Both the position numbers and the translations under genes were made by a program. From the IMG/VR virus record IMGVR_UViG_3300021255_002251: a DNA stretch of 57,601 nucleotides; one strand, written 5' to 3'. The notes under the pieces are model-generated. The model was not told the DNA's origin and made no database searches. It saw only the letters and a program-made list of their open reading frames with translations. This document shows positions 27,022 through 27,233 of this stretch, one piece after another (the first letter of the stretch is position 1; every line of letters starts with the position of its first letter). Source of the DNA: a virus. Its lineage: Duplodnaviria > Heunggongvirae > Uroviricota > Caudoviricetes.

Positions 27022-27233
27022 ACTCAAATGGAAAGTAGGCTTAGAGGCAGCCATCTTATAATGAGTGGACTCTATGCATCGGTGCAAACCTAAAGACAGT
27101 GAGAGGAGACGGACGTTCGCAGTCCCGATTTGGGGTAAACTGTGAGATGATGCATAGAGATTAAGGTCTAATCGTACAGACTTACCGGGTGAGCTAGCAG
27201 GTATCCTTTAGCGTCACAGCACACCATTTGAGT
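27022..27233 (+). ncRNA. 23S rRNA GTPase-associated-centre (H43-H44, uL11 site) mimic with 144-nt insertion
   Basis: 10-bp closing helix ACTCAAATGG/CCATTTGAGT; GGAAAGTAGGCTTAGAGGCAGCCATCTTATAATGAGTG...CGTCACAGCACAC aligns to 23S about nt 1054-1105. Confidence 0.85.

Follow-up and report, generated by a model that had tools for sequence, protein, structure and literature searches.

A 57,601-nt stretch of phage DNA (IMG/VR virus record IMGVR_UViG_3300021255_002251; the whole stretch is called the window below) carries, inside an array of tRNA genes, a 212-nt unit at 27022–27233 (+ strand) whose ends correspond to the GTPase-associated center (GAC) of bacterial 23S rRNA. Joined, these ends (27022–27066 and 27211–27233) give a gap-free match to 23S rRNA 1046–1113, the uL11/thiostrepton domain, and a 144-nt insert branches off helix 44 (H44) between positions 1090 and 1091. 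Sequence comparison identifies the element as a member of a large phage-specific RNA family, and compensatory changes across its members show that the GAC fold is under selection in the family, which is absent from Rfam 15 and from the searchable literature and is unannotated in cultured phages. We think it fairly probable that the phage RNA is a free-standing, trans-acting GAC mimic that binds host uL11 or factors recognizing the GAC.

A GAC-like domain outside an rRNA gene

An initial annotation of this DNA, made from its letters alone, had described a GAC mimic shut by a perfect 10-bp helix, and the two strands of that helix, 27022–27031 (ACTCAAATGG) and 27224–27233 (CCATTTGAGT), are indeed exact reverse complements. 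As the 23S reference we used the enterobacterial segment L167:2551–2608 (Citrobacter), which has the sequence of E. coli 1051–1108 and is identical to the E. coli segment given in the annotation. Excising 27068–27211, as had been proposed, yields exactly the core string quoted there; family comparison refines the insert to 27067–27210, directly after U1090 and with G27211 as G1091, a placement of the same length and equivalent to the first because a G stands at both junctions. The spliced core aligns with 23S 1051–1108 without gaps, as claimed, and 39 of the 58 positions are identical (36 of 48 within 1056–1103). Eight of the 12 positions unlike rRNA within 1056–1103 are the two sides of pairs that are still complementary: the changed pairs are 1058–1080 (A-U), 1082–1086 (A-U), and 1090–1101 (U-A), and G1054-C1105 in the closing helix is also kept. 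Four differences fall at variable loop or junction sites (1056, 1061, 1070, and 1089), and positions 1095 and 1097 in the H44 loop differ as well. These compensatory differences had all been listed in the annotation, together with the retained U1060, A1067, G1071, C1072, A1088, and C1092-G1099, and every one of them is present.

Read from its 5′ end, the element begins with the 5′ strand of the closing helix (27022–27031, +), which replaces the end of H42 (about 1046–1055); all 10 pairs of this helix covary in the family. A1056 and the H43 hairpin follow at 27032–27057 (+), aligned without gaps to real 23S rRNA and covarying at 1057–1081 and 1058–1080. The hairpin has a 3-bp lower stem (27033–27035/27055–27057, equal to 1057–1059/1079–1081), a 3-bp upper stem (27038–27040/27050–27052, equal to 1062–1064/1074–1076), and a 9-nt loop of the form UUAGARGCA (UUAGAGGCA, A1067 included) that is that of rRNA except for A1070G. 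Next, at 27058–27066 (+), come the 1082–1086 turn AUAAU with its A-U closing pair, a pair that covaries in the family (U-A 41, C-G 23, A-U 7), and then G1087, A1088, G1089, and U1090, the 5′ strand of lower H44. After the insert, 27211–27223 (+) supplies G1091–A1103 including upper H44, where 27211 pairs with 27220 and 27212 with 27219 around the hexaloop GUCACA; 3′ of the loop, A1101 and C1102 pair with U1090 and G1087 (27063–27066 with 27221–27222), and A1103 follows. H44 thus has G1087-C1102, 1090–1101, G1091-C1100, and C1092-G1099 around a GUAAYA-type hexaloop, pairs retained by 29–30 of 30 and by 82 of 83 sequences of the family. The unit ends with the 3′ strand of the closing helix (27224–27233, +), which covaries with the 5′ strand.

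The nucleotides of the tertiary core, namely U1060, A1088, G1071, C1072, the 1082–1086 pair, A1084, and A1085, are all in the window; across 60 family cores and 29 independently ascertained copies they either do not vary or covary, and they would be expected to form the same three-dimensional contacts as in rRNA. A 29-nt core pattern occurs once in the window and in none of 100 shuffles. An Rfam scan of the whole window at gathering thresholds returned tRNAs only and no rRNA, and the flanks of the element are tRNA genes, not the remainder of a 23S rRNA gene; the annotation had likewise held that this is no captured rRNA gene, and a free-standing domain inside a tRNA operon is what we find.

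A phage RNA family with a covarying GAC fold

We probed IMG/VR with the 18-mer GGCTTAGARGCAGCCATC and matched at least 119 stretches, so that the census is a lower bound. A covariance model, R1, was built from 29 phage members with the window left out; its E-values are rough. Applied to both strands of the window, R1 gives a single match at 27024–27231 (+), with 85.7 bits, an E-value of 3.4e-25, and coverage of model positions 1–177. Among 100 IMG/VR loci picked up with the 18-mer, at least 96 hold full R1 copies, and only L056, L013, and L042 are not full copies at E <1e-10. L056 is real 23S rRNA, L042 is a chance match to the 18-mer, and L013 is a member lacking the insert: its GAC mimic, 66 nt long and free-standing (3710–3775, +), has a closing helix of its own and a lower H44 that is remodeled, and no other insert-less member was seen. 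The common architecture is a closing helix of 5–20 bp of arbitrary sequence, GGAWGUW, the H43 hairpin, N-UUUAARGAGU, an insert of 57–335 nt, YUUUG, GCGUAAYAGCACAC, and the 3′ strand of the closing helix. One IMG/VR contig (L054) carries two differing copies in tandem, at 5125–5361 and 5442–5707 (+), scoring 74.2 and 85.6 bits.

Copies also occur outside IMG/VR. In a species genome collection (185,579 genomes), R1 identified 29 of 44 matches to a pattern for the 3′ half as true copies, located in metagenome-assembled genomes or isolates labeled Clostridia, Bacteroidota, Proteobacteria, Bdellovibrionota, Chloroflexota, Nitrospirota, and Saccharibacteria; these copies are presumably prophages or binned phage contigs. 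A 40-nt consensus query (blastn) led to cultured phages, six of which hold a complete, unannotated copy checked with R1 (Pseudomonas pf16, Aeromonas 4_4572, Cronobacter GAP32, Xanthomonas XacN1, Serratia BF, and Acinetobacter ME3); Ralstonia RSP15, Pseudomonas UNO-G1W1, Vibrio 2.275.O, and Erwinia, Yersinia, and Pectobacterium jumbo phages are carriers by blastn only. The whole 551-nt region, run with blastn against GenBank phages, returned tRNA matches only.

Covariation across the family points to a maintained structure. When 30 members were aligned with MAFFT and the GAC pairing was imposed on them, 95.5% of cells proved to be paired; the covariation score was 0.527, as against 0.125 in shuffles (none of 500 reaches 0.527) and at most 0.156 when the partners are slid. 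Two-sided changes affect all 10 pairs of the closing helix, 1057–1081 (A-U/C-G), 1058–1080 (G-C/U-A/A-U, and C-G too in the larger set), 1082–1086 (U-A/C-G/A-U), and the first two pairs of the insert. Ninety distinct sequences aligned to R1 give the same picture, in an alignment that leans towards the model structure. Independent phage homologs with compensatory changes, to which the annotation had looked for support, were thus found many times over, in the 30-member and 90-sequence alignments and in the R1 census. Across 60 distinct cores, U1060, A1084, A1085, A1088, G1089, U1090, G1091–U1094, A1096, and A1098–A1101 are invariant or nearly so; A1088 and G1089 are strictly invariant, as are G1091, C1092, G1093, U1094, A1096, and A1098–A1101. 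These conserved nucleotides are the builders of the compact tertiary fold in L11-RNA crystal structures, where U1060 contacts A1088 and G1071 and C1072 form triples on G1091-C1100 and C1092-G1099.

The 23S GAC (the end of H42, H43, and H44; E. coli 1051–1108; the 58-nt uL11- and thiostrepton-binding fragment) and the phage RNA share their secondary structure, the 9-nt H43 loop, the 6-nt H44 loop, and the tertiary-contact nucleotides, and each is matched by the covariance model of the other. The Rfam bacterial large-subunit (LSU) consensus of this stretch (GAgGUUGGCUUAGAAGCAGCCAUCcUuuAAaGAguGCGUAAuAGCUCAC) is almost that of the phage family; the Rfam LSU model matches a prophage copy at model positions 1093–1148 (E 8.6e-6 per genome), and R1 conversely scores true 23S GAC regions at 40–53 bits. 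Unlike the 23S GAC, the phage RNA lies outside an rRNA gene and is phage-encoded among tRNA genes; H42 gives way to a helix whose sequence is arbitrary, positions 1090 and 1101 form a Watson-Crick pair (U1090-A1101), and a 57–335-nt domain with a UUUG linker follows 1090. The interface of the L11 C-terminal domain comprises nucleotides 1058–1060, 1062–1065, 1075–1083, and 1088 (PMC1802607), all conserved or covarying in the phage family, and the insertion point at 1090/1091 lies outside both L11 contact lists of that study. U1061A is a substitution that stabilizes GAC tertiary structure and has been used experimentally for that (PMC1802607); the window carries A1061.

A decaying, functionless piece of captured host 23S rDNA, or an assembly chimera, is a rival explanation, and real 23S pieces do occur in some phage records (Paenibacillus phage Pd_22F and the IMG/VR locus L056 noted above). 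We give this explanation next to no credence, given the compensatory changes, the private closing helix, and the fixed position of the insert in more than 100 unrelated contigs, the lack of rRNA flanks, and the case of Flintibacter (L153 versus L168), for which both sequences are known and the element is no copy of the host GAC. The Pd_22F piece (L181; MZ092003.1, about 83,950–84,020) is genuine 23S rRNA with flanks in a 1.7-kb unannotated gap and does not belong to the family; it came either from capture of host rDNA or from contamination.

A 251,769-bp IMG/VR genome with inverted terminal repeats (G006) is 91%–95% identical to the window over most of the compared stretch and has an identical element. 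The identity extends over a 386-nt block, 26848–27233, that is 100% identical and contains tRNA-Ser (GGA), tRNA-Asp, and the whole element, whereas the neighboring tRNA genes and spacers are only about 66%–94% identical. Selection or recent exchange could account for the block; as two tRNA genes share it, the identity of the element is weak evidence for selection on the insert.

We found no description of the family. Rfam 15 returned only tRNAs, and no intron, ribozyme, leader, ROOL, or GOLLD, on the window (gathering thresholds and E ≤10) and on seven family loci (E ≤1). A full-text literature search, which included the sequence itself and had subscription journals outside its coverage, retrieved no description, and a 224-motif survey makes no mention of a phage GAC mimic. 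In a survey of IMG/VR that reported about 10,000 csRNA candidates, no rRNA prediction overlapped any candidate and no GAC interpretation was given (PMC10690425); those csRNAs were mined from the same data source, and the phage GAC RNA may sit among its unnamed candidates. ROOL (RF03087) and GOLLD (RF01998) are likewise phage-associated and tRNA-adjacent, but they measure 500–800 nt, have no rRNA-like domain, and show no match in sequence or structure to the phage GAC RNA in the window or in the seven family loci; they are reported to form RNA-only multimers (PMC12286853).

Leaders of ribosomal-protein mRNAs (L10_leader, RF00557; the L1, S8, S15, and L20 operators) also imitate an rRNA site for a ribosomal protein outside the ribosome, but they are cis-regulatory, lie upstream of ribosomal-protein genes, and copy local features only, whereas the phage RNA is a stand-alone viral gene that reproduces a whole tertiary domain nearly base for base with no coding sequence downstream. 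The logic is likely that of sponge and decoy RNAs such as CsrB/RsmZ, 6S RNA, and phage ToxI mimics, in which an RNA acting in trans imitates the natural ligand of a protein; here, by contrast, the imitated ligand is a folded rRNA domain, and protein binding is a prediction. To our knowledge, no virus has been described that encodes a whole rRNA tertiary domain as a stand-alone RNA.

The inserted domain

The insert ranges from 57 to 335 nt in the family (median 139 nt). It is opened by a covarying helix (G-C, A-U, U-A, and C-G in the family; G-C and G-C in the window) and closed by a 4-base linker before G1091, which reads UUUG in most copies and UUUA in the window. With this basal helix and linker lying between U1090 and G1091, H44 becomes a three-way junction. 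In the window the domain proper spans 27067–27206 (+), its base formed by pairs of 27067–27068 with 27205–27206, and the linker occupies 27207–27210 (+); in the family alignments YUUUG-G is nearly invariant. The remaining fold is predicted from a single sequence: a perfect 11-bp stem (27070–27080/27149–27159) around an inner 8-bp stem (27116–27123/27139–27146), with small hairpins at 27165–27169/27178–27182 and 27183–27186/27200–27203. These details are tentative, and the stability of the insert is little above that of shuffles (z = −1.5). Pairing of the UUUG linker with the 1083–1087 segment was considered and rejected, as the AAAG there varies to AAUG or AAGG without covariation in the linker.

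Inserts vary greatly within the family, with recurring modules GUGCGAAAUG...UGAUG and CACCCCG-NNNN-YGGUAAGG. Among the fetched loci the window insert has no relatives except identical copies in two loci (L176 and L177), and neither it nor the inserts of seven family loci contain an Rfam family or another part of rRNA. The insert might be an intervening sequence, removed by self-splicing or by cleavage and RtcB-type ligation to leave a minimal GAC mimic of about 68 nt. L1090 is a documented site of group I introns in LSU rDNA (PMC1299323), most copies have a U before the insert and a G at its end, a natural insert-less member exists in L013, and the window encodes RtcB. Group I introns, however, are longer than these inserts; neither intron nor ribozyme families gave a match at E ≤10 in the window or at E ≤1 in seven other loci; the insert ends in UUUA before G1091 in the window and several relatives; there is no bulge-helix-bulge motif, and RtcB is unlinked to the family; and the covarying basal helix with its conserved 4-nt linker resembles a three-way junction instead. 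A group I intron in particular was rejected, there being no RF00028 match and a size below what a P3–P9 core requires, and removal of the insert by any of these routes seems to us distinctly improbable.

A sarcin-ricin loop (SRL) was sought and not found in the window, which has only AGUGAGAGGA, a string that falls short of the SRL 12-mer by two bases, and 91 distinct elements show no SRL enrichment. An AGUA-C-GNRA-G-GA hairpin is found in 2 of 127 elements, as against 0.28 expected: L041 (about 3689–4067, −) and L082 (about 8560–8990, −) carry AGUAC-GGGA-GGAA and AGUAC-GAAA-GGAG, respectively. In both, a helix flanks the hairpin, which occupies the same position in the insert, about 250–275 nt after the H43 motif. 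A diverged SRL-type version lies at the same insert position in L069. Judging by these motifs, the long-insert sub-family of L041 and L082 may imitate both halves of the GTPase center.

Genomic setting and proposed function

The array around the element comprises 23 tRNA genes (26096–29037, +; ARAGORN and Rfam), flanked by protein genes on the − strand. The tRNA-Asp gene (26939–27016) ends 5 nt upstream of the element, and tRNA genes lie downstream as well. Similar arrangements recur in the family: 71 of 121 copies have a tRNA gene no more than 500 nt away; the 436 tRNA genes that lie within 2 kb of a copy all share its strand; the pf16 copy lies between tRNA-Asn and tRNA-Pro; and 27 of 102 distinct copies have the 3′ end of a tRNA 14–23 nt before the H43 motif, right against the closing helix, the identity of this adjacent tRNA being variable. 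From the same-strand linkage and the abutting tRNA 3′ ends we infer co-transcription with tRNAs and release by tRNA-processing enzymes. In the window, 27022–27233 would accordingly be the gene of a stable non-coding RNA, transcribed with the tRNA array and probably cut out by host tRNA-processing enzymes. A sigma-70-like promoter match (TTGTCA-17-TACAAT with TG; consensus match only) upstream of the array, at 25556–25584 (+), is a possible start of the element-bearing transcript.

So close a physical link with tRNA genes, which share the strand of the element throughout and often have a 3′ end against it, would also suit a tRNA-handling or ribosome-associated role without uL11, in which the RNA contacts tRNA elbows or serves as a processing or folding scaffold for neighboring tRNAs. 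The ribosomal GAC touches the elbow of A/T-state tRNA, and genes for CCA-adding enzymes lie near a few copies. We nevertheless hold such a role to be improbable: it offers no reason for retaining the entire uL11 interface, the adjacent tRNA differs in identity from copy to copy, roughly one copy in four lacks any tRNA in the fetched locus, and the GAP32, Serratia BF, and XacN1 copies lie between protein genes with no tRNAs nearby. The XacN1 copy (L179; AP018399.1, 1496–1729) is directly downstream of an annotated 2′-5′ RNA ligase gene (ORF260).

No protein neighbor recurs; the largest cluster is present in 7 of about 120 loci (phosphoesterases, CCA-adding enzyme, SPFH, HNH). A uL11 gene is absent from five carrier genomes. 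The binding partner would therefore be supplied by the host or be unlinked to the RNA. A cis-acting leader that mimics rRNA to bind a ribosomal protein has a classical precedent in mRNA leaders. As an account of this RNA it is highly improbable, since the window copy is followed by tRNA genes and not by a coding sequence, about 120 loci share no conserved downstream gene, and no Rfam leader family was found in the window (E ≤10) or in seven family loci (E ≤1). Context and covariation together exclude a cis-leader, an rDNA fragment, and an assembly artifact.

The reading we favor is that of a GAC mimic acting in trans, off the ribosome. The ends of the RNA would fold as a copy of the GAC in which H43 and H44 are accompanied by a generic helix that stands in for H42. 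The nucleotides of the compact tertiary structure would be kept, along with the surface to which the C-terminal domain of uL11 binds, and the variable domain, 144 nt in the window, would branch off H44 via a conserved UUUR linker. That protein domain recognizes exactly the GAC tertiary structure, even as a 58-nt fragment, and binding of the phage RNA to uL11 can reasonably be inferred from the conserved interface. Host uL11 would be the foremost partner, and the RNA would capture or divert either the free protein or factors docking on uL11-GAC. RelA activation needs uL11, and what the phage gains could be damped RelA activation in cells flooded with phage tRNAs; capture of GTPases and absorption of enzymes aimed at the GAC are further options. 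The initial annotation had also envisaged titration of uL10-(bL12)n. This titration is not supported: the part that stands for H42 is only a free-sequence helix of 5–20 bp, and as it carries no conserved sequence, binding of uL10 is unlikely.

Several observations weigh against the mimic as we describe it. Sequestering free uL11 need not deplete the ribosome-bound protein, and a simple sponge leaves the conserved position of the insert, its linker, and its recurring sub-motifs unexplained. The invariance of 1062–1079 in the IMG/VR set is partly imposed by the search pattern. In the 29 copies found via the other half of the RNA, and so ascertained independently of the H43 loop, G1071 and C1072 are still invariant and G1062-C1076 and C1064-G1074 are each replaced once by A-U, but the loop tip varies, with A1067G in 6, G1068A in 4, and A1069G in 2. 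Position 1095 is C in the window, and G or C in 7 of 60 cores. As A1067 and A1095 vary more than the fold core, the thiostrepton/GTPase face is not strictly kept; this partial freedom fits conservation of the fold and of uL11 binding better than a strict copy of the thiostrepton/EF-G face. A strict reading as a thiostrepton/EF-G site is accordingly weakened.

In a more specific form of the proposal, which we regard as possible but would not put first, the RNA and host uL11 together would make a free-standing imitation of the ribosomal factor-binding site, capturing or mis-activating what normally docks there, be it translational GTPases, GAC-directed immune toxins, or RelA on uncharged tRNA. 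A phage that floods its host with tRNAs would, if this were true, be equipped to restrain the stringent response or to shield the ribosome, and its RNA would be the first decoy of an rRNA domain from a virus.

The RNA could instead be a decoy substrate, a spare H43/H44 that soaks up Tre23-type ADP-ribosyltransferases, nucleases, methyltransferases, or thiopeptides and so shields ribosomes. Other kinds of phage RNA decoys are known. The H44 hexaloop and its closing pairs hardly vary across the family, and a toxin that acts there exists: Tre23, an interbacterial T6SS effector, ADP-ribosylates bases 1095–1098 of the GAC H44 loop (PMC8661411). The phage moreover encodes an open reading frame (ORF) with an ADP-ribosylglycohydrolase domain at 45159–46139 (−; PF03747, 135 bits), tied to the RNA by co-presence in the window only; no linkage to such hydrolases exists family-wide. 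Since Tre23 acts between bacteria, since no anti-phage system aimed at the GAC was found in the literature searched, and since 1095 and 1097, inside the mapped Tre23 target, vary, we consider the decoy substrate unlikely; moreover, tens of thousands of ribosomes would outcompete a few hundred decoys if the affinity for free RNA were not much higher.

If the GAC mimic is what we take it to be, a small RNA counterfeiting one of the most highly conserved functional sites of the ribosome is spread among phages of many lineages and many hosts; the carriers include jumbo phages of Gammaproteobacteria, prophages of Clostridia, and contigs binned as Bacteroidota, Bdellovibrionota, and Saccharibacteria. 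Mimicry of an rRNA domain in trans would be a new principle in the conflict between virus and host over translation, and an unannotated gap in dozens of sequenced phage genomes would be explained. The phage RNA would offer structural biology a natural GAC fold with a built-in three-way junction, as well as a handle on the roles of free uL11, RelA activation, and GAC-directed toxins during infection, and the cultured carriers pf16 (Pseudomonas putida), 4_4572 (Aeromonas hydrophila), GAP32, and XacN1 make the idea directly testable.

The window is phage DNA, with genes for a large terminase, a ClpX-like ATPase, LpxR, and two DNA methylases. The initial annotation had grouped the element with RtcB, Thg1, and an RlmN-like enzyme into an RNA-based system. 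RtcB RNA ligase (11447–12676, −; 362 bits) and a Thg1-like tRNA-His guanylyltransferase (13112–14017, −; 97.7 bits) are present, the radical-SAM match at 9932–10972 (−) is weak and sub-threshold, and a functional system is not supported, given that no protein family occurs near more than 7 of about 120 carriers. The LpxR lipid-A deacylase homolog (197.7 bits) and a capsule-synthesis/glycosyltransferase protein, at 18642–21493 (−), possibly remodel the host envelope.

Two gaps in the tRNA array, at 27258–27340 (+) and 26642–26731 (+), hold tRNA-like units that ARAGORN did not call and that give weak Rfam tRNA-Sec matches (20.7 and 25.8 bits, respectively, against a cut-off of 47). The unit at 27258–27340 has an 11-bp acceptor-like helix (ATGAGTTCTGA/TCAGAACTCAT) and a T-loop, GGTTCGATTCC; both units may be unusual long-stem tRNAs or tRNA mimics.

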